A stretch of 64,000 bases of DNA from an uncultured Actinomycetes bacterium. GTDB taxonomy: Bacteria; Actinomycetota; Thermoleophilia; Gaiellales; Gaiellaceae. The first letter of the stretch is position 1. Each line of letters begins with the position of its first letter. The translations under genes were made by a program, and so were the position numbers. The DNA lies in NCBI GenBank assembly GCA_963766345.1, contig CAVXZL010000001.1, positions 1,911 through 65,910 on the forward strand, written 5' to 3'. Shown here piece after piece: positions 2,065 through 24,364 of this stretch. The notes below the pieces were generated by a model. That model saw only the letters and a program-made list of their open reading frames with translations. It ran no database searches and was not told where the DNA came from.

Positions 2065-3187
2065 GCAGCAGGTCGGCGCCCTCGGGTTCACGCGCTCGCC
2101 TTCGGAAGACGACCCGCGCCGCGATCCGCGGCTGCTCGCCTCGATCGCCCGCGTCGCGCCCGGCACCGAGCTGAGGCAGGGAATCGAGGACATCATCCGC
2201 TCCCACGAGGGCGCGCTGATCGTGATCGGCGACCCGGAGGCGCTCGCGTTCCTCTATTCGGGCGGCATGCGCCTCGACATCAACTTCACCGCTCAGCAGC
2301 TCTACGAGCTGTCGAAGATGGACGGCGCGATCATCGTCAAGGACAACCTCACGAAGCTCGCGTACGCGAACGTCCAGCTGATGCCCGACCCGACGATCTC
2401 CTCCAACGAGACGGGCACGCGCCACCGAACCGCCGAGCGCGTGGCGAAGCAGACCGGCGCGCTCGTCGTTTCGATCTCCCAGCAGCGGGAGACTGTGACG
2501 ATCTTCCAGGGACGCCAGCGCTACCAGCTCGATCCCGTGCCGATCGTTCTCGCCAAGACGAACCAGGCGCTCGCGACGCTGGACACGTACCGCACGCGCC
2601 TCGAGCAGGTGCTCACGCGGCTGACGGCACTCGAGTTCCAGAACGCAGTCGTTCTCGACGACGTCCTCGTCGTACTGCAGCGCGCCGAGCTGACGACGCG
2701 CATGGCCGAGGAGATCGAGCGCAACTGCGTCGAGCTCGGCTCGGAGGGCCGCCTGATCAGGATGCGCCTCACCGAGCTGCTCGGCGACGTCCCCGGCCAG
2801 AAGGCAGCCGTGGTCAACGACTATCACGCCGCAGGCGCCGGGCCCGAGGCGGTGCTGGCGCAGGAAGGCGTCGCGGCGCTCAGCTACCACGAGCTGCTCG
2901 AGTTCGAGCGGCTCGCGGAAATCCTCGGCTACCCGCGCACGATCAACCCGCTCGACCACAGCGTGTCGCCCCGCGGTTACCGGGTGCTGTCGAACATCCC
3001 GCGCCTTCCGCCGAGCGTGGTCCAGAAGGTCGTGGCCGATATGGACGGCCTCGACGCGATCGTCCGCGCCTCCCAGCGCGACCTCGAAGCTGTGCAGGGC
3101 GTGGGCACCGCGCGGGCTCGAGACATCCGCGAGGGGCTCCGTCGGCTCCAGGAACACAACCTCGTCGACCGCTACCTGCAGCTCTAG
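2045..3187 (+). CDS. disA: DNA integrity scanning protein DisA (diadenylate cyclase)
   Basis: DAC-domain motifs (HEGALIVIGD, DGAIIV, TGTRHRTAERV) and a C-terminal HhH (VQGVGTARARDIREGL). It follows radA with a 20-nt overlap, which is the classical radA-disA pairing. Confidence 0.9.
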   Translation: MPDRADKQQVGALGFTRSPSEDDPRRDPRLLASIARVAPGTELRQGIEDIIRSHEGALIVIGDPEALAFLYSGGMRLDINFTAQQLYELSKMDGAIIVKDNLTKLAYANVQLMPDPTISSNETGTRHRTAERVAKQTGALVVSISQQRETVTIFQGRQRYQLDPVPIVLAKTNQALATLDTYRTRLEQVLTRLTALEFQNAVVLDDVLVVLQRAELTTRMAEEIERNCVELGSEGRLIRMRLTELLGDVPGQKAAVVNDYHAAGAGPEAVLAQEGVAALSYHELLEFERLAEILGYPRTINPLDHSVSPRGYRVLSNIPRLPPSVVQKVVADMDGLDAIVRASQRDLEAVQGVGTARARDIREGLRRLQEHNLVDRYLQL

Positions 3188-3200
3188 CTCGCTACGAGCA

Positions 3201-3246
3201 GGGACTTTGCAGAAAAGTAGCCGATTTGCGGGACTTTTGATACACT
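3201..3246 (+). promoter_or_regulatory. Putative carD promoter region: direct repeat GGGACTTT (3201-3208, 3230-3237) and an extended -10 TGaTACACT (3238-3246)
   Basis: This is the only clearly AT-richer intergenic tract in the area. The TG-n-TACACT element lies about 75 nt upstream of the carD TTG start. No good -35 was found. Confidence 0.3.
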
Positions 3247-3322
3247 CTTAACCACTGCGCCGGGGGCGTCTTCGCCGTCGGCGTCTTGCCGAGTAGACCC
3301 ACGACCCGTAGGGGAGGAAGGC

Positions 3323-3892
3323 TTGTTCAAGGTCGGCGACAAGGTGGTGTATCCGCACCACGGAGCAGGCACGATCGTCAAGAAGGAAAAGCGCGTCGTC
3401 CTGGGGGAGAAGCGCGAGTACCTGACGATCAAGATCCTGCACAACGACATGACCGTCAACGTTCCGTGCGAGAACGCCGAGGCCGTCGGCCTCAGGCAGG
3501 TCATCGACGAAGAGATGGTCAAGAAAGTCACCAAGGCACTGACCGGCGGCGGCACTGCGATGCCCAAGAACTGGAACCGCCGCTTCAAGCACAACCGCGA
3601 CAAGATGAAGACCGGCGACATCTTCGAGCTTGCCGAGGTCGTCCGGAACCTGTCGCTCCGCGATCACGAGAAGGGCCTCTCCACGGGTGAGAAGCAGATG
3701 TTCGTGAAGGCCAAGAAGATCCTCGCGTCCGAGCTCATGTACGCGAAGAGCCTCGACGAGGAGGCCGCCGCCGACTGGCTCGACGACGTGCTCTCCACGA
3801 ACGGCACGAACGGAACGAACGGCACGAAGAAGACGACGGCGACGGCGAAGACGGCGTCGACCACCAAGACGAAGGCCGGCGCGGCCGCATAG
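3323..3892 (+). CDS. carD: CarD-family RNA-polymerase-binding transcription regulator
   Basis: TTG start preceded by the SD GGGGAGGAAGG. The N-terminus FKVGDKVVYPHHGAGTI...REYLTIKI matches the CarD/TRCF RID fold. The tail is low-complexity and rich in NGT/T/K. Confidence 0.9.
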   Translation: MFKVGDKVVYPHHGAGTIVKKEKRVVLGEKREYLTIKILHNDMTVNVPCENAEAVGLRQVIDEEMVKKVTKALTGGGTAMPKNWNRRFKHNRDKMKTGDIFELAEVVRNLSLRDHEKGLSTGEKQMFVKAKKILASELMYAKSLDEEAAADWLDDVLSTNGTNGTNGTKKTTATAKTASTTKTKAGAAA

Positions 3893-5122: not shown

Positions 5123-5603
5123 GCTCCGGATCGGCACCGGCGTCGATGCGCATGCCCTCGAGCCGGGTGTGCCGCTCGTGCTCGGCGGGGTCTCGTTCGA
5201 CTCGCCGCGCGGGCTCGCCGGCCACTCCGACGGCGACGTGATCACGCACGCGCTGATCGACGCGTTGCTCGGCGCGGCCGCGCTCGGCGATATCGGAGCG
5301 ATGTTCCCGCCGGACGATCCCGAGCTCAAGGGCGTCTCGTCCGTGAAGCTGCTGCGCGAGGCCTACGGGCAGGTGCGCCGCGCGGGCTACGAGCTCGTGA
5401 ACGCGGACGTCGTCTTCATCGGCCAGGAGCCGCGGCTCGCGCCGGTTCGCGCGCAGATGCAGGAGACGCTCGCCGCGGCGCTCGACCTCGACGACCAGGC
5501 GAGGATCTCCGTGCGCGCCACGACGACGGACGGCTTGGGCTTCACCGGCCGGGGCGAGGGCCTTGCGGCGCAGGCCGTCGCGCTGCTCGAGCGGACTACC
5601 TAG
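5115..5603 (+). CDS. ispF: 2-C-methyl-D-erythritol 2,4-cyclodiphosphate synthase
   Basis: GTG start. Motifs IGTGVDAHAL, GHSDGDVITHALIDALLGA and TTTDGLGFTGRGEG. Confidence 0.9.
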   Translation: MSELRIGTGVDAHALEPGVPLVLGGVSFDSPRGLAGHSDGDVITHALIDALLGAAALGDIGAMFPPDDPELKGVSSVKLLREAYGQVRRAGYELVNADVVFIGQEPRLAPVRAQMQETLAAALDLDDQARISVRATTTDGLGFTGRGEGLAAQAVALLERTT

Positions 5604-6003
5604 CGCGCCGCTTCGCGCGCTCGAGCCGCCGCCGCTGCTCGCGGCTGAGCCCTTCGGGCACGATCCCCTGCTGCTCCTGCATGTCGAGCACGGCCTTCCG
5701 CTCCTTCGCCGACAGCTGGGACATCGCCTGCTGCGCCTTCAGCGGATCGTTGGTCGCGCCGCCGTATCGCTTCAGCTTCTTCATCGCGCTCGCGAGCTCC
5801 GGGTTCGACCGCTCCATAGCCGCCTCGGAGGCCTTCTCCAGCAGGCCGCGGAGGAACGGCACCTTCGCCATCGTCGTGAACAGCGGCCGGAGGTAGCGAC
5901 CGCCCTTGATCCGCGAGAGGACGAACAGGATCCCGAAGACGAGCGCGACCCCGAGCAGGATCCAGACTGGGAGCAGGATGAGCCAGGGCACGGCGAGCAG
6001 CAC
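5596..6003 (-). CDS. Hypothetical membrane-anchored protein
   Basis: An N-terminal TM helix (LLAVPWLILLPVWILLGVALVFGILFVL) is followed by a charged helical region. It begins 11 nt downstream of the AhpD-like ORF on the same strand. Confidence 0.5.
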   Translation of the reverse strand: MLLAVPWLILLPVWILLGVALVFGILFVLSRIKGGRYLRPLFTTMAKVPFLRGLLEKASEAAMERSNPELASAMKKLKRYGGATNDPLKAQQAMSQLSAKERKAVLDMQEQQGIVPEGLSREQRRRLERAKRRAR

Positions 6004-6014
6004 GGGTGCCCAGA

Positions 6015-6563
6015 TTAGCCGCTCTCGAGCGCATATCCGCTCGCGAGCATCGCGTCGGCCCGCTCGAAGAACGACTCGAAGGACGGGATGTCCCAGCCGA
6101 GCGAGTCGGCGAGGCGGACGATCATGCTGAAGAGCGCGCAGATGTGGATCGCGTCCACGAGCGCCTCGTCGGAGACGCCAGCCGCGCGCACGGCGTCCGC
6201 ATCGGCGCGGGTCACCTCATCCGGCTCGAGCGTCAGCTTCTCGAGGAAGCCGAGCGTCGCAGCGAGGCGCTTCGACACCGGCGCCGTTCGCCAGTCGCGC
6301 CGAACGGCTTCCCAGACCTCCTCGCCGAGCGCGTACGACGCGACCGCGCCGTGGGCGTTCGTTCAGAACACGCACTGGTTGAGCGACGACACGAACGCGG
6401 CGAACAGCTCCCGCTCGCCGTCGCTCCAGTCCGACGGCCCGCGCAACGCGAGCTCCAGCGCGTCCGAGTACGGCCGCCCGAAGAGCTCGGGCCGGTAATG
6501 GAGCGTCTTCAGCACACCGAGGGGCCTCGGCGCGGGAGCGGCATCGACGACGGCGAGCCTCAC
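6015..6563 (-). CDS. AhpD/carboxymuconolactone-decarboxylase-family peroxidase-related protein, predicted selenoprotein (UGA at 6363-6365 decoded as Sec)
   Basis: The tail of track ORF 6363..6824 and track ORF 6015..6278 share one frame and are separated only by a TGA. Read-through gives ERELFAAFVSSLNQCVF-U-TNAHGAVASY, which is the family N-x-C-x-x-C-x-x-x-H motif with Sec at the second Cys. The GTG start at 6563 overlaps the upstream stop (GTGA). Confidence 0.7.
6335..6352 (-). promoter_or_regulatory. SECIS-like hairpin downstream of the UGA in the AhpD-like gene
   Basis: The RNA ACGGCGC-GGUC-GCGUCGU forms a 7-bp stem including one G-U pair. It starts 11 nt after the UGA and has GGU in the apical loop. 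Confidence 0.5.
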
Positions 6564-6802
6564 AGTGCCCCCAGCCCCGCTTCGAGCCGAACCAGTCCCG
6601 CCGCGACCGCCGTCGAGACCGTGTGCTCGAAGATCTGATCCTCGGAGAAGCCCGCGTCCTTCAGGGACTGCACGTCGGCGTCCGTGACGCGGTACGCGTG
6701 GAGGCGTACCTTCTCGAGATACGACGCGAGCTCCGGCGGCGCCGGCCGCTCGGGGCGCGCGGCGCGCCGCAGCTCCTCGATGAGCGGGTCGTAACGCGTC
6801 AC
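6560..6802 (-). CDS. Small CMD/AhpD-like domain protein (C-terminal-half-like, no CxxC)
   Basis: 80 aa. The segment YRVTDADVQSLKDAGFSEDQIFEHTVSTAV resembles the distal helices of CMD-family proteins. There are GTGA overlaps at both ends. Confidence 0.5.
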   Translation of the reverse strand: MTRYDPLIEELRRAARPERPAPPELASYLEKVRLHAYRVTDADVQSLKDAGFSEDQIFEHTVSTAVAAGLVRLEAGLGAL

Positions 6803-7506
6803 GCGGGCACCGTGACGCTCTCACCCTCGACGCGCACGAGACCGTCGCGCGCGAGCGCGGCGATCGCCTCCGCGTCGTCCGAAGACCCTCCGGCGAGGAC
6901 CGCGCGCAACGCGTGCGCCCGCCGCTGCCGAAACGAGCCCTCGAACGGCGACTGCTTGCGGAGCGGCTCGTAGCGGCGACCGACGGACGGACACCGCTCT
7001 GCCAACGGGCACACGCCGCAGCGAGGCACGCGTGCGAGGCAAACGGTCGCTCCGAGATCCATCAGCGCGTGTGCGTTGCCGGCGGCGAACGTGTGGCCCG
7101 TGCGTTCCTCGACGCGGCGCACGTTCGTGTCGCGCGGAAGCTCGTCGTCGCCGAACGCGAAGTTGCGCACGGCCGCAGCCGTGTACTCGCCGACGCCGGG
7201 CAGGCTCGCAAGGTCATCCGGCCAGCCGCCGGCGGCGACGGCTCGCGCCGCTCGCTGGAGGTTCAGCGCCCGACGGTTGTAACCGAGCCCCTGCCACTCG
7301 CACAGGACGTCTGCCGTCTCGGCAGCGGCGAGAGCCTCGATCGTCGGCCAGCGCTCGAGCCAGCGCAGGTATCGCGGCACGACGCGTGCCACCTGCGTCT
7401 GTTGCAGCATCACCTCGCTCACCAGGATCGAGTACGGATCACGGGTCCTGCGCCACGGCAGATCTCGCCCGTTTTCGCTGAACCAGTCCGAAAGCAGCTC
7501 GTCCAC
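6799..7506 (-). CDS. mutY: HhH-GPD adenine DNA glycosylase, MutY-like short form with a 4Fe-4S loop
   Basis: Motifs LPWRRTRDPYSILVSEVMLQQTQV, WQGLGYNRRA, LPGVGEYTAAAV and the Fe-S loop CLARVPRCGVCPLAERC. The GTG at 7506 is preferred as the start. The track ORF extends to 7641 through an Arg/Pro-rich, non-homologous N-terminus. Confidence 0.8.
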   Translation of the reverse strand: MDELLSDWFSENGRDLPWRRTRDPYSILVSEVMLQQTQVARVVPRYLRWLERWPTIEALAAAETADVLCEWQGLGYNRRALNLQRAARAVAAGGWPDDLASLPGVGEYTAAAVRNFAFGDDELPRDTNVRRVEERTGHTFAAGNAHALMDLGATVCLARVPRCGVCPLAERCPSVGRRYEPLRKQSPFEGSFRQRRAHALRAVLAGGSSDDAEAIAALARDGLVRVEGESVTVPA

Positions 7507-7643
7507 AGGATCGAGCCTACTTCGGCGCCCGGTCGCACACGACGGCTTCTTGCCCGACGCGTTAGCTTTCGGATCTCTACCCGGTCGAGGCGGCGGTGTG
7601 GGAATCCGCCTGATCGCCATCGCCGGGGGAAAGGGGTTCACGG

Positions 7644-18114: not shown

Positions 18115-18992
18115 GCCTTCACCTTGCGGTAGAGCCGCTCGATCGCGTCGAGCTCCTCGTACTTGGCGGCGCTGTCGCTCATCCGCAGCGACTCCTTGTG
18201 TCCGAGCGCGAGGATCCCGAGCCGCATGAGGCTCGCGTCGAAGAGCTCGAAGACGCGCTCCTGCAGGCTGCGTTCGAAGTAGATCATCACGTTGCGGCAG
18301 ACGACCATGTGGAACTCGTTGAACGACCGGTCCGAAGCGAGGTTGTGCTGTGCGAACACGACGTTGCGCAGCAGCGAGCGGTCGAACGCGGCGCCGTCGT
18401 ACGCCGACGTGTAGTAGTCGGCGAACGCGCCTTTGCCTCCGGCCGCGATGTAGTTGCGCGTGTAGTCCTGCATCTTCGCGAGCGGGAAAACGCCGAGCCG
18501 CGCGCGCTCGAGCACGCCCTCGTTGATGTCGGTCGCATAGATCCGCGCGCGGTCGTACACCCGCTCCTCGTCGAGCAGGATCGCGAGCGAATACACCTCC
18601 TCGCCGGTCGAGCAGCCGGCGACCCAGATGCGCGTGAACGGATACGTCTTGAGCAGCGGCACGACTTTCTCGCGCAGCGCGACGTAGAACGTCGGGTCGC
18701 GGAACATCGCCGTGACGTTGATCGAGAGGTCGAGCAACAACCGCTCCATGACCTCCGGATCGCGAAGCAGCCGTTCCTGCAGAGACGAGATCGTCGGCAG
18801 CCCCTCGAGCTGCAGGCGCCGGTGCACACGCCGTCGCAGCGAGGCGGGCGCGTATTCGCGGAAGTCGAAGCCGTAGCGCCTGAAGACGGCTTCGAGCAGG
18901 CAGTCGAGCTCGATTTTCTCGAGGTCGAGCGCGTCGCCGCCGCTGGCCGAGGCGGCCGTCAGGCCTGCACTGCGCTGCGGTCGTACAGCCAT
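18111..18992 (-). CDS. cheR: CheR-type protein-glutamate O-methyltransferase
   Basis: Motifs [40 protein letters not shown] and [10 protein letters not shown]. It overlaps the 3' end of the kinase gene by 34 nt. Confidence 0.9.
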
Positions 18993-21900
18993 ACGCGGAG
19001 CAACGAGACGAGCTTGTCGGTGTCGACGGGCTTGGTGATGTAGTCCGAGGCGCCCGCGGCGATCGACTTCTCGCGGTCGCCCTTCATGGCCTTCGCGGTC
19101 AACGAGATGATCGGCAGCGCCTCGAACTGCGGCATCGCCCGGATCCGGCGGATCGTCTCGTAGCCGTCGAGCTCCGGCATCATGATGTCCATCAGGACGA
19201 CGTCGACGTCCGCGTCCTCGCCGAGCAGCTTGAGCGCATCGAGCCCGTTCTCGGCGTAGCGGACGTGCATGCGGCGAGCCTCGAGAACGTTGCTCAGCGC
19301 AAACACGTTGCGCACGTCGTCGTCGACGATCAGCACCTTCTTGCCTTCGAAGACGGCGTCTGCGCTGTGCAGCTGCTGCAACAGCTTCCGCTTCTCCGCC
19401 GGAAGTCGCGACTCGACGCGATGCAGGAAGAGGGTCGTCTCGTCCAGCAGCCGCTCGGGTGAGTTCACGTCCTTGACGACGATCGTCTCTGCGTAGCGGC
19501 GCAGCGCGGTTTCCTCCTTGCGCGTGAGCTGTTTCGCCGTGTAGATGATCACCGGCACCTTCGAGAACCGGTCGTCGGACTTGACGCGCTCCAGCAGCTG
19601 AAAGCCCTGCATATCGGGCAGCTTGAGGTCGAGCACCATGCAGTCGTACGGCCCCCGCTCGAGCTCTGCGAGCGCTTCCTCGCTCGAGCCGACCGCGGTG
19701 ACGTTGATGTCCTCGCCGTCTCCGAGGAGCTCGGTCAGGGCCTGGCGCTGGGCGCTCTCGTCGTCGACGACGAGGAGGTTCCTCACCCTCCGGTCGAGGA
19801 AGCCGGAGATCTGGGAGAACGCCTCGTCGAGCAGCGACTTCTCGACGGGCTTCTCGAGGAAGGCAACCGCTCCGGCGCGCAGGGCGTCCTGCTTGCCGTT
19901 CTCGGCGCCGGTGACGACGTGCACCGGGATGTGACGCGTGTCGGGATGGCGCTTCAGGTGATCGAGCACCGCCCAGCCGTCCATGCCGGGAAGCGCCATG
20001 TCGAGGACGATCGCGTCGGGCTTGGACTCGTGCGCGAGGGCGAGCCCTGCATCGCCGCGCAGCGCGACGATTCCCTTGAAGCCACGCTCGCGCGCAACCT
20101 CGAGCACCGTTCTCGCGAAGGTCTCGTCGTCCTCGACGATGAGCACGACGCGGTCGCCGACGTCGATCGAGCCGCGATCGTCGTCGACGCCGCTCGAGAG
20201 GATCAGCGCGGGGTCGATAACGGGACCGGGCACGGCGTCGCCACCGATCGCGGAGCGCTCACGCGTCAGCGGTGCATCGCTGGCCGCGCCGCGGGACGCG
20301 CTGTAGCGCACGGGCAGGTAGAGCGTGAACGTCGATCCCTCGCCGGGCGACGACGTGACGTGGATCTCGCCGCCGAGGAGGCGCGCGATCTCGCGGCTGA
20401 TCGACAGGCCGAGGCCCGTCCCGCCGTAGCGCCTGCTCGTCGTCCCGTCGGCCTGCTGGAACGCCTCGAAGATGAGCTTCAGCTTGTCCGAGGGGATGCC
20501 GACGCCGGTGTCGGTGACGGCGAAGGAGAGCACGGTGTCGGCGTCGAGGAGCGTCCGCTCCCGCAGCTTCGCGCCTTCGCCGGCGCGGGAGACGCGAAGC
20601 GAGACCGTGCCGCTCTCCGTGAACTTGCACGCGTTCGAGATCAGGTTCTTGAGCACCTGCTGCAGTCGCTGCTCGTCGGTCGCGATCTTCGGCGGCACGT
20701 CGGCCGCGATGTCGACGTCGAAGCCGAGCCCCTTCTCCTCCGCGACCGGGCGGAACGTGCGGTTGACGTAGTCGCGGACCTCGTCGAGGCCGAGGTCGGT
20801 GACGTGGACGTCCATCTTGCCGGCTTCGACCTTGGAGAGATCGAGGATGTCGTTGATCAGGTTCAGCAGGTCGCTGCCCGCGGTGTAGATCGTCTTCGCG
20901 AACTCGATCTGCTTCGGAGTCAGGTTCTGCTCCGGGTTCTCCGAGAACAGCCGCGCGAGGATCAGCATCGAGTTGAGGGGCGTGCGCAGCTCGTGCGACA
21001 TGTTCGCGAGGAACTCGCTCTTGTACTTCGACGAGAGCGCGAGCTGCTCCGCCTTGTCCTCGATCGCCGAGCGAGCGTCCTCGATCTCGCGGTTCTTGAT
21101 CTCGATGCGCGCGTTCTGCTCCTCGAGCAGCTGCGCCTTCTCCTCGAGCTCCTCGTTCGTCTGCTGCAGCTCCTCCTGCTGCTGCTGGAGCAGCTCCTCG
21201 GAGGTCTTCAGCGACGCGGCCTGCATCTCGAGCTCGGTGTTCGACCGCTTGAGCTCCTCCTGCTGCGACTGCAGCTCCTCCGAGCGCTCCTGCAGATCCT
21301 CGGTCAGCTTCTGCGACTGCGTGAGCAGCTCCTCGGTGCGCATGTTCTGCTGGATGACGTTGATGACGATCCCGAGCGACTCCATCAGCGCCTCGAGGAA
21401 CGCCTGGTGCGTCTCGCTGAACGGATGGAACGACGCGAGCTCGACGACCGCCATCGTCTGCCCCTCGAACAGCGCCGGCAGCACGAAGACGTTGTGCGGC
21501 GATGCCTCGCCGAGCCCGGACGCGATGCGGATGTAGTCGTCCGGCGCCTCGGTGAGCAGGATTGGCGCCTTCTCGAGCGCCGCCTGGCCGACGAGCCCCT
21601 CGCCGAGCCCGAAGCGGTTCGCGACCGTCTTGCGCTGCTTGTACGCGTAGCTCGAGATCAGGCGCAGCTCGAGCTCCTCGCCCTCGCCGTGCGCGAGGAA
21701 GAACGCGCCGTGGTGCGCGCCGACGAGCGGCGTCAGCTCCGACATGATCATGCGGCTCACGGTCTCGAGGTCGCGCTGGCCCTGCATCATTCCGGTGAAC
21801 CGCGCGAGGTTCGAGTTGAGCCAGTCCTGCTCGGCGTTCCGTCGCGTCGTCTCCGCGAGGTTGCGGATCATCTCGTTGATGTTGTCCTTGAGCTCGCCGA

Positions 21901-24364
21901 CCTCGCCCTTCGCCTCGACGGCAACCGTCCGCGTGAGGTCGCCCTGCGTCACCGCGGTTGAGACGTCGGCGATCGCGCGCACCTGAGTCGTCAGCGACGC
22001 GGCCATCGTGTTCACGTTCTCCGTGAGGTCGCGCCACACGCCCGAGACGCCCCGCACCTGAGCCTGACCGCCGAGCTTCCCCTCGGTGCCGACCTCCTTC
22101 GCGACGCGCGTGACCTCCGCTGCGAACGAGGAGAGCTGGTCGACCATCGTGTTGATCGTGTTCTTGAGCTTGAGCACCTCGCCGCGCGCGTCCACGGTGA
22201 TCTTCTGCGAGAGGTCGCCCTGTGCGACTGCGGTCGTCACCTCGGCGATGTTGCGCACCTGCCCCGTGAGGTTGTCGGCGAGCGTGTTGACGGAGTCGGT
22301 GAGGTCCTTCCAGGTGCCGCTGACGCCCTTGACGCGTGCCTGGCCGCCGAGCTTGCCCTCGGTGCCGACCTCGCGCGCCACGCGCGTGACCTCGTCGGCG
22401 AACGAGGAGAGCTGGTCGACCATCGTGTTGATCGTGTTCTTGAGCTGGAGGATCTCGCCCTTGACGTCGACGGTGATCTTCCGGCCGAGGTCGCCCTGGG
22501 CGACCGCCGTCGTGACCTCGGCGATGTTCCGCACCTGGCCGGTCAGGTTCGACGCCATGAAGTTGACGTTGTCGGTCAGGTCCTTCCAGACGCCCGACAC
22601 GCCCTCGACGCGGGCCTGGCCGCCGAGGATGCCCTCGGTGCCGACCTCGCGCGCCACCCGCGTGACCTCCGCTGCGAACGAGCGGAGCTGGTCGACCATC
22701 GTGTTGATGGTCTCCTTGAGCTCGAGGATCTCGCCGCGCGCGGTCACGGTGATCTTGCGAGAGAGGTCGCCCTGCGCGACCGCGGTCGTGACGTCCGCGA
22801 TGTTCCGCACCTGGCCGGTCAGGTTGTCGGCGAGCGTGTTGACGTTGTCCGTGAGGTCCTTCCACGTACCGGAGACACCCTCGACCTTCGCCTGGCCGCC
22901 GAGCTTGCCCTCGGTGCCGACCTCCTTGGCGACGCGCGTGACCTCGTCGGCGAACGAGGAGAGCTGGTCGACCATCGTGTTGATCGTGTTCTTGAGCTCG
23001 AGGACCTCGCCCTTGACGTCGACGGTGATCTTCTTCGAGAGGTCGCCCGTCGCGACGGCGGTCGTGACGTCCGCGATGTTCCGCACCTGCGCGGTCAGGT
23101 TCGCCGCGAGCGTGTTGACGTTGTCGGTGAGATCCTTCCAGACGCCCGAGACGCCCTTCACGTCGGCCTGGCCGCCGAGGATGCCCTCGTTGCCGACCTC
23201 GCGCGCGACGCGCGTCACCTCGCCGGCGAACGCGCGCAGCGTGTCGATCATCGAGTTGATCGTGTCCGCGAGCTGTGCGACCTCGCCCTGCGCCTCGATC
23301 GTGAACTTCCGGTCGAGGTCGCCGTTCGCGACGGCGGTGACGACGCGCGCGATCCCGCGGACCTGCGTCGTCAGGTTCGTCGCCATGAAGTTCACGTTGT
23401 CGGTGAGGTCCTTCCAGGTGCCGCTGACGCCCTTGACGCGTGCCTGGCCGCCGAGCTTGCCCTCCGTGCCGACCTCGCGGGCGACGCGTGTGACCTCGTC
23501 GGCGAACGAGGAGAGCTGGTCGACCATCGTGTTGATCGTGTTCTTCAGCACCAGGATCTCGCCCTTGACGTCGACGCTGATCTTCCGACTCAGATCGCCT
23601 GCGGCGACCGCCTTCGTGACGTCTGCGATGTCGCGCACCTGTGCGGTCAGGTTCGACGCCATGAGGTTGACGTTGTCCGTGAGGTCCTTCCAGACCCCGG
23701 ACGTTCCCTTGACCTTCGCCTGCCCGCCGAGCTTGCCCTCGGTGCCGACCTCGCGCGCCACGCGCGTCACCTCGTCGGCGAAGCTCGAGAGCTGGTCGAC
23801 CATTGCGTTGACCGTCGTGCCGATGCGGCGGAACTCCCCTCGTAGGGGCCTCCCGTCGATCCGCAGGTCCATCCGCTGCGAGAGATCGCCGTCGGCGACC
23901 GCGTCGATCACGCGGGCGATCTCGTTCGTCGGCCTGACGAGATCGTCGATCATGCCGTTGATCGCGTCCGTGGTCTCGCGCCAGGCGCCGCGGTAGCGCG
24001 GCAACGCCACGCGCTCGTTGAGGCGCCCGTCCCGGACGACGCGTGCGACGCGCTGCAACTCGTCTGCGAGGTTCGAGCGCCTGTCCGCGAGGTCGTTGTA
24101 GGCACGCGCGAGCTCTCCGCCGAGGCCGCTCTGCTCTCCGCTCAGCCGAAAGTCGAAGTCACCGGCGCTGGCCGCGCGCAGAGCAGCGAGCAACTCGCGC
24201 AGCGGCGCCTCGTCGACCGCGCCGTTTCCGTTCGTCCCTTCGGTCGCGACTTCGGCGCGAGTTGTCTTCGCTCGTGACGTTCTGCTCGCAGCCACCGTTG
24301 CTCCTTCCGCAGTAGGAGTGCTCCGGGCGGGGTTGTCGGGGGTCACCAACTCGAGCCCTCGCAC
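18959..24364 (-). CDS. Soluble hybrid sensor histidine kinase: poly-HAMP array, GAF, E/Q-rich coiled coil, HisKA, HATPase_c, three receiver domains
   Basis: No TM segment was found. There are 8 tandem 92-aa HAMP-pair units, a GAF domain (aa ~860-1000), H-box [10 protein letters not shown] (His ~1124), N/G boxes, and three REC domains (LIVEDDE...[15 protein letters not shown]...[15 protein letters not shown]...DIMMPELDG). An alternative start, GTG 24295, has the strong SD GGAAGGAG. Confidence 0.9.
21851..24064 (-). repeat. Coding tandem repeat: 8 x 276 bp (92-aa HAMP-pair units; first copy degenerate)
   Basis: The unit FA[DAG]EVTRVA[RK]EVGxEGxLGGQAxVxGxSGxWxDLTxNVNxxAxxLTxQVRxIAxVxxAVxxGDLxxKxxVxxxGExxxLKxTINxMVDQLxS starts at aa 195, 287, 379, 471, 563, 655 and 747. 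Stretches of about 80 nt are near-identical between copies (for example around 22100, 22380, 22930, 23480). Confidence 0.9.

Follow-up and report, generated by a model that had tools for sequence, protein, structure and literature searches.

The TGA-interrupted gene and its surroundings

Within the window, by which we mean the whole stretch of 64,000 nucleotides that was analysed, the minus-strand frame 6563..6015 comprises 182 codons plus TAA and, upon translation, displays a single internal stop. The frame starts with a GTG at 6563 and ends with the TAA at 6017..6015; it reads MRLAVVDAAPAPRPLGVLKTLHYRPELFGRPYSDALELALRGPSDWSDGERELFAAFVSSLNQCVF-stop-TNAHGAVASYALGEEVWEAVRRDW...SGYALESG, and decoding of the TGA would give 182 residues. 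A first-pass annotation had proposed that the listed open reading frames 6363..6824 and 6015..6278 are parts of one frame, and the translation verified that this frame is interrupted once, by TGA 6365..6363. This codon, number 67, stands in the context ...GERELFAAFVSSLNQ-C-V-F-stop-T-N-A-H-GAVASY..., and the motif of the 182-aa product would read E52-x11-C64-V-F-U67-T-N-A-H71. On both sides of the TGA the GC3 was 0.90–0.93, which is the composition of a real gene, in a window with a G+C content of 69.5%. In addition, the start at GTG 6563 was supported by homologues that share MRLxVV beginning at the same place. The features of the locus are listed here, with the evidence for each in brackets.

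6015..6563, minus strand: predicted AhpD-like (TIGR01926 peroxidase-related) selenoprotein gene (sequence, HMM scores, 6k40_A match)
6365..6363, minus strand: in-frame UGA, candidate Sec codon 67, U67 (TGA at the homologous codon in relatives)
6353..6336, minus strand: invariant 18-nt block CACGGCGCGGTCGCGTCG, encoding H71-G-A-V-A-S76 (codon alignment)
6352..6335, minus strand: SECIS-type hairpin, stem ACGGCGC/GCGUCGU with one G.U pair, tetraloop GGUC (fold and conservation)
6326..6361, minus strand: possible extended lower stem, CGA 6361..6359 with UCG 6328..6326 (fold)
6560..6802, minus strand: conserved partner ORF, 80 aa, unannotated, without CxxC motif or family assignment (tblastn, weak TIGR01926 match)
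6799..7641, minus strand: MutY/endonuclease-III-like glycosylase (TIGR01084, 175.6 bits, below the cutoff of 286.5)
5596..6003, minus strand: predicted membrane or coiled protein, 135 aa (starts 11 nt past the stop of the predicted selenoprotein gene)

For HMM scoring of the joined product, the stop was replaced by Cys. The product reached 97.9 bits with TIGR01926, the 'peroxidase-related enzyme' family (curated cutoff 81.8), over residues 37–156 on profile positions 52–172, and it passed marginally for the carboxymuconolactone decarboxylase (CMD) family PF02627 (24.3 bits, gathering threshold 23, residues 36–75). Both cutoffs that were relevant to the family assignment of the first-pass annotation were therefore passed. 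The profile score with the canonical AhpD family TIGR00777 was 16.1 bits, below the cutoff of 191.95, and with 51.1 bits against a cutoff of 175 the window protein falls outside NF041238, the AhpD_rel_CFYUT (seleno)protein family. A sequence search against solved structures identified Deinococcus radiodurans AhpD (PDB 6k40_A, E 1.9e-25) as the best match, followed by 2OYO, 3C1L, 2PFX and 2PRR; these matches span residues ~43–161, with E values from 1.9e-25 to 1e-14. The window stop codon falls on the second Cys of the C-x-x-C-x-x-S/A-H-G-A signature of the structures, which reads CVYC in 6k40_A and 2oyo_A. Likewise, NQCVF-U-TNAH of the window aligns with NQCPF-C-TGSH and similar stretches of Cys homologues. 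The alignments to Cys homologues and to solved structures, such as 6K40, thus agree in placing the UGA where the second Cys would stand in an E-x11-C-x-x-[C/U]-x3-H motif.

Apart from codon 67, high-GC3 sequence surrounds just one in-frame TGA of the window, at 3664..3666 on the minus strand. We rejected this as a second selenoprotein, since a first-position G+C of 0.35–0.43 shows that the frame is merely the shadow of a plus-strand gene (3323..3892). The window also holds a very long minus-strand ORF at 18959..24364 (1801 aa) with a strong coding composition (GC3 0.94).

Conservation of the TGA codon among relatives

A search of 5.8 billion proteins returned more than 1000 relatives, among which three groups were seen. 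The first consisted of full-length proteins with Cys at the Sec position (e.g. CPFCTGSH); the CxxC homologues include P0006, P0009, P0016, P0025 and P0031. The second was made up of 'full-length' JGI entries with W at this position, and the third of many 100–123-aa fragments that begin just past the TGA (MGSHGAVASY..., MNAHGAVASY..., VWEAV...). Trp occupied the Sec position in the JGI-derived entries P0001–P0003, P0007, P0008 and others, and the codon was verified for P0001, where the underlying DNA (L057) has TGA; the W in P0001 is therefore a translation-table artefact. Gene callers fragment this gene, as the first-pass annotation had anticipated, or drop it, and dozens of entries are either stubs of 100–120 aa or carry a false Trp. 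Public protein sets systematically misrepresent the AhpD-like selenoprotein family through such false Trp residues and post-TGA stubs, and correct annotation demands that the UGA be read as Sec.

A genome scan with one genome per species (GTDB representatives) yielded 56 loci, mostly from Gaiellaceae, Gaiellales or Thermoleophilia MAGs and with a top identity of 92%; one locus each came from Longimicrobiales, Sericytochromatia and Myxococcales. TGA was present at the homologous codon in 54 of the 56 species-representative loci, as well as in the window and in L057, and in the remaining two (L051 and L056) no motif could be recognised. Relative to the TGA, C(-3), E(-15), E(-17) and H(+4) were 100% conserved in 55 sequences. 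The Cys homologues L059–L062 have TGC or TGT at this codon, and Cys is also what the more distant homologues carry. Homologues were found to continue past the motif, with amino acids conserved on either side of the TGA and the motif contiguous in the Cys homologues. The general hallmark of a selenoprotein gene, a conserved in-frame TGA with coding conservation on both sides, was accordingly observed.

Other residues at the Sec position were encountered as well. In the metagenome homologue L058 (601..1197), AGA (Arg) replaces the Sec codon and the 18-nt SECIS block is intact; protein P0005 has Ser at the Sec position. Sec may have been lost recently in these two, the copies may be inactive, or the reads may contain errors.

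Conceivably, the TGA could be a nonsense mutation in, or a miscalled TGC/TGT of, an ordinary Cys-type AhpD-like gene, in other words a pseudogene or a sequencing error. One window by itself would be compatible with an error, and the AGA in L058 indicates that point changes do happen at this codon. However, 54 independent genomes at species level, as well as further metagenome contigs, have TGA at the same codon; downstream of it the protein is still strongly conserved and the GC3 still clearly that of coding sequence, and conservation of the hairpin block described below is specific to the TGA forms. We therefore assign this explanation a practically negligible probability.

The UGA might instead be a true stop that ends a 66-aa N-terminal peptide, perhaps followed by a separately initiated C-terminal protein. 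Gene callers do give a 50-aa or 87–118-aa fragment on either side, and since termination in bacteria competes with the insertion of Sec, some truncated product is to be expected. Nevertheless, there is no conserved start after the TGA: the first in the window is GTG 6278, 29 codons downstream, and other homologues have ATG, GTG or TTG at varying positions. Moreover, termination at this codon would part C64 from H71, members of a single catalytic motif that is unbroken in every Cys homologue and in the solved structures. A true stop is thus very unlikely, and decoding of the UGA as Sec remains the reading that we prefer.

The downstream hairpin and the Sec-decoding machinery

The first-pass annotation had drawn attention to a hairpin, ACGGCGC-GGUC-GCGUCGU, downstream of the UGA. 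We found this hairpin at 6352..6335 on the minus strand, and predictions for segments of 27 and 41 nt gave it as the dominant fold. Since 10 nt lie between the hairpin and the A of the UGA, it begins at the 11th nucleotide. Its stability was not above chance, with z-scores of -1.1 to -1.4 and 24–28 of 200 dinucleotide shuffles (12–14%) folding as well, and folding of a 76-nt segment gave z = +0.99. Because the sequence has a G+C content of ~70%, such single-sequence folding statistics are uninformative. A covariance search, which had been suggested as a check, lent the hairpin no backing: there was no Rfam match at the gathering threshold, and up to E = 10 the region 6200..6500 gave chance-level matches only.

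The comparison of homologues was decisive and lifts the hairpin above chance. The 18-nt block 6353..6336, with the codons CAC GGC GCG GTC GCG TCG for H-G-A-V-A-S, was identical in all 55 distinct TGA-containing homologues of the codon alignment, synonymous positions included. Among the 71 four- or six-fold degenerate codon columns with a conserved amino acid, the median frequency of the major codon was 0.69, and only five were codon-invariant; these five are consecutive and correspond to the G-A-V-A-S codons within the hairpin. For the run of six invariant columns, the permutation test gave p = 4e-5. At the level of the fold, six base pairs (CGGCGC/GCGUCG) and the loop were invariant in 50 of 50 distinct 54-nt sequences, and the seventh pair was A-U in 47 of them. 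No covariation is seen at the stem because the stem never varies. The four Cys homologues compared use other codons in the block (e.g. GGC GCG GTG GCA GCC), with which the hairpin cannot form, and H-G-A is kept in three of them. These patterns indicate that the hairpin is under nucleotide-level constraint and that this constraint is confined to the TGA forms. Conservation of the HGAVAS peptide and codon bias could account for part of the invariance.

The hairpin might extend into a lower stem (6326..6361). Its outer three pairs were paired in 44–50 of the 50 sequences and its middle pairs were broken in ~30 of the 50; changes in the lower stem were one-sided among these 50 sequences, and covariation was not above that of shuffle controls. 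A middle helix that was predicted for the window sequence was rejected, as it is not conserved in homologues.

A small apical loop that contains G and lies right after the UGA is stated as the hallmark of bacterial SECIS elements in the SECIS passage of PMC1088965. The window has a stem of 6–7 bp with a G-containing GGUC loop, 10 nt after the UGA.

The same 18-nt block, together with the partner ORF, was also observed around positions 3150–3250 of each of the loci L048, L049 and L050, which derive from the Longimicrobiales, Sericytochromatia and Myxococcales MAGs and show ~55% protein identity. This identity of the block suggests that the cassette has spread horizontally or that SelB and the peptide constrain the sequence very tightly.

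Within the 64-kb window, a tRNA search detected a tRNA-Thr only and no tRNA-Sec, and tblastn with the L047 genes as queries gave no match to selA or selB. Ten window ORFs of appropriate size were inspected by eye and resembled CysS, a methyltransferase, acyl-CoA carboxylase, SucC and the like, not Sec genes. As no machinery is present within these 64 kb, it is the relatives that indicate Sec decoding in the source genome. In the Actinomycetota MAG locus L047, the genes are arranged in the order selA, selB, tRNA-SeC(tca), partner ORF and TGA-containing AhpD-like gene. The selA of this locus is partial and scored 213 bits with TIGR00474 on the portion that lies inside the locus, and its selB (TIGR00475) is present in frameshifted pieces that are typical of long-read assemblies. 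The Sec machinery thus lies directly upstream of the selenoprotein cassette, to which it is physically linked, in L047 (1..3473, tRNA-SeC at 2592..2683). Furthermore, selA and selB are adjacent in L066, from the Gaiellaceae MAG GCA_036503495.1, where the SelB-specific domains are present, and likewise in the JGI contig L067.

SelA relatives (P0121–P0240) were mostly called at ~250–270 aa instead of ~460 aa, and we considered a lineage-wide split of selA on account of the many ~257-aa calls. This idea was rejected: in L067 (4..777) selA is cut by the contig end, 3 nt before a GTG, in L066 (5493..6756) its frame is shifted in the MAG, where a segment of 16 nt diverges at SRG|ELIEIGDGF, and there was no sign of a programmed event. 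Many SelA calls begin at VLARSGARL, which suggests that assemblies tend to break there.

Selenium-free read-through of the UGA, by a near-cognate Trp or Cys tRNA or under a reassigned code, would be in line with the W at this position in JGI translations. This W is, however, a translation-table artefact over TGA, and a Trp as the CxxC nucleophile would inactivate the motif. Neither the SECIS-like constraint nor the adjacency of selA, selB and tRNA-Sec in L047 would be explained by such read-through. In addition, more of the predicted genes in the window end in TGA (25 of 44) than in any other stop, and the genetic code is therefore not globally altered. We regard selenium-free read-through as extremely unlikely.

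The in-frame TGA, the protein family, the Sec/Cys alignment, the lineage-wide TGA, the constraint on the hairpin and the machinery in relatives were all shown by the analysis. On this basis, the locus is very probably a genuine AhpD-like (TIGR01926/COG2128, CxxU) selenoprotein gene of a Gaiellaceae-type actinobacterium; this confirms what the first-pass annotation observed and supports its interpretation. SelB binding, Sec insertion in the source organism, enzymatic activity and an interaction with the partner are what we infer from it.

The proposed selenoenzyme, its partner and known systems

In the mechanism that we propose for this selenoprotein gene, the ribosome would meet the UGA at codon 67, and the hairpin 10 nt downstream, with its six invariant G-C-rich pairs and GGUC loop, would recruit SelB.GTP.Sec-tRNA(Sec). 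Sec would then be inserted instead of termination, yielding the 182-aa protein. This product would have the AhpD fold and a redox centre C64-x-x-U67 (selenenylsulfide) served by the invariant E52 and H71, the catalytic role of which we assume by carrying it over from M. tuberculosis AhpD. The latter protein (TIGR00777) has the CMD fold and a Glu...Cys-x-x-Cys...His proton-relay motif, in which the second Cys is the attacking nucleophile. Because of this role of the second Cys in M. tuberculosis AhpD, Sec would be most advantageous at that very position. The product is presumably a selenol/thiol peroxidase or oxidoreductase, with a peroxide, an AhpC-type partner or another disulfide as candidate substrates, and it would probably be co-produced with the translationally coupled 80-aa partner encoded upstream.

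The TGA stop of the partner ORF overlaps the GTG start of the selenoprotein gene (GTGA), and tblastn placed the partner ORF directly upstream of the TGA gene in nearly all loci. A start-overlapping protein of 112–143 aa also precedes three of the four Cys homologues examined. The other neighbours are common to few loci, the glycosylase to ~10 close ones only and the downstream 135-aa gene to two, and the conserved unit is therefore the partner plus the enzyme. A second GTGA joins the glycosylase gene (6799..7641) to the partner ORF.

The partner ORF of the window matches TIGR01926 with E 6e-4 at profile positions 119–171, which represent the C-terminal helices, and four versions of the partner each match these helices weakly (positions ~119–172, E 4.6e-5 to 0.03). 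In two proteins, P0008 (313 aa) and P0012 (282 aa), the partner and the enzyme seem to be fused. A homologue of the partner ORF furthermore gave a very weak match (E 0.077) to positions 50–115 in the N-terminal part of NF041238, which hints that the two-gene pair may resemble a split form of the NF041238 architecture. As a tentative idea, less probable than its converse, the cassette could encode a split heteromeric selenoenzyme, in which the partner would serve as a second, obligate subunit and complete an AhpD-type enzyme of pseudo-two-domain build. The partner, of 80–140 aa and lacking cysteines in the motif positions, accompanies Sec as well as Cys forms in at least four phyla. If the idea were true, a split selenoenzyme would be standard equipment of the abundant soil Gaiellaceae, and the occurrence of one and the same 18-nt SECIS in several phyla would suggest that the cassette has spread horizontally as a whole.

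The locus leaves the current understanding of selenoproteins unchanged. It is a clean case of a SECIS inside active-site coding sequence, where six codons serve as both catalytic peptide and RNA signal. It also indicates that Gaiellaceae/Thermoleophilia, which are abundant and poorly studied soil actinobacteria, decode Sec, and that they do so routinely in an AhpD-type redox enzyme. With Sec in an AhpD-type peroxide/thiol enzyme, selenium availability may bear on the oxidative-stress physiology of these bacteria.

Among solved proteins, 6K40, 2OYO, 2PFX, 2PRR and 3C1L share the N-x-C-x-x-C-x-x-x-H-G-A signature with the window protein. Unlike it, they are Cys proteins, of 188–197 aa, and the first ~40 residues of the window protein are unmatched in them; the structural-genomics entries 2OYO, 2PFX, 2PRR and 3C1L are described as 'uncharacterized peroxidase-related proteins'. 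In M. tuberculosis AhpD the spacing from the Glu to the first Cys is 12 residues, the same as from E52 to C64, although that enzyme belongs to another subfamily, given that the window protein fails the TIGR00777 cutoff. NF041238 is also a CxxU AhpD-related selenoprotein ('hypothetical protein 1' of the Sargasso Sea), to which the window protein matches at positions 223–335 of 357. With respect to the RNA signal, the SECIS of E. coli fdhF has a GGUC apical loop, a short G-C-rich stem and a spacing of ~11 nt, a geometry that is needed for SelB delivery. The window hairpin has the GGUC loop and the short G-C-rich stem in common with the fdhF minihelix; in contrast to the latter, it lacks the bulged U, has a G.U pair instead, and follows a spacer that is 1 nt shorter.

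That AhpD-like selenoproteins form an already known family, as stated in the first-pass annotation, is borne out by the passages on them in PMC1088965, PMC2398784 and PMC13188914. According to these, the AhpD-like CxxU proteins (COG2128/TIGR01926) emerged as a new selenoprotein family, with 27 sequences, from the 2005 Sargasso Sea analysis of Zhang, Fomenko & Gladyshev (PMC1088965). In the GOS survey AhpD-like was the fourth most abundant family, with 299 sequences and 902 Cys homologues for 'AhpD-like 1' (PMC2398784). The family is also listed in a 2026 review (PMC13188914), and the corresponding entry of BSepDB catalogues it (PMC13326102). Judged by its sequence, the window gene bears every feature by which this family, known since 2005, is defined. 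As in the published descriptions of the family, it belongs to the same HMM family, carries CxxU with Sec for the second Cys, has widespread Cys homologues, and shows a SECIS with a G-containing loop after the UGA. The AhpD-like passages of PMC1088965, PMC2398784, PMC13188914 and PMC13326102 make no mention of a partner ORF, which is the only mildly new element. The published sets, as described there, consist mainly of marine metagenome reads, whereas the window member comes from a soil-type, high-G+C Gaiellaceae lineage in which Sec seems to be the usual form (54 of 56 loci). What goes slightly beyond the catalogue is hence the near-fixed Sec form in Gaiellaceae-type genomes, the SECIS that is identical in three other phyla, and the partner ORF.
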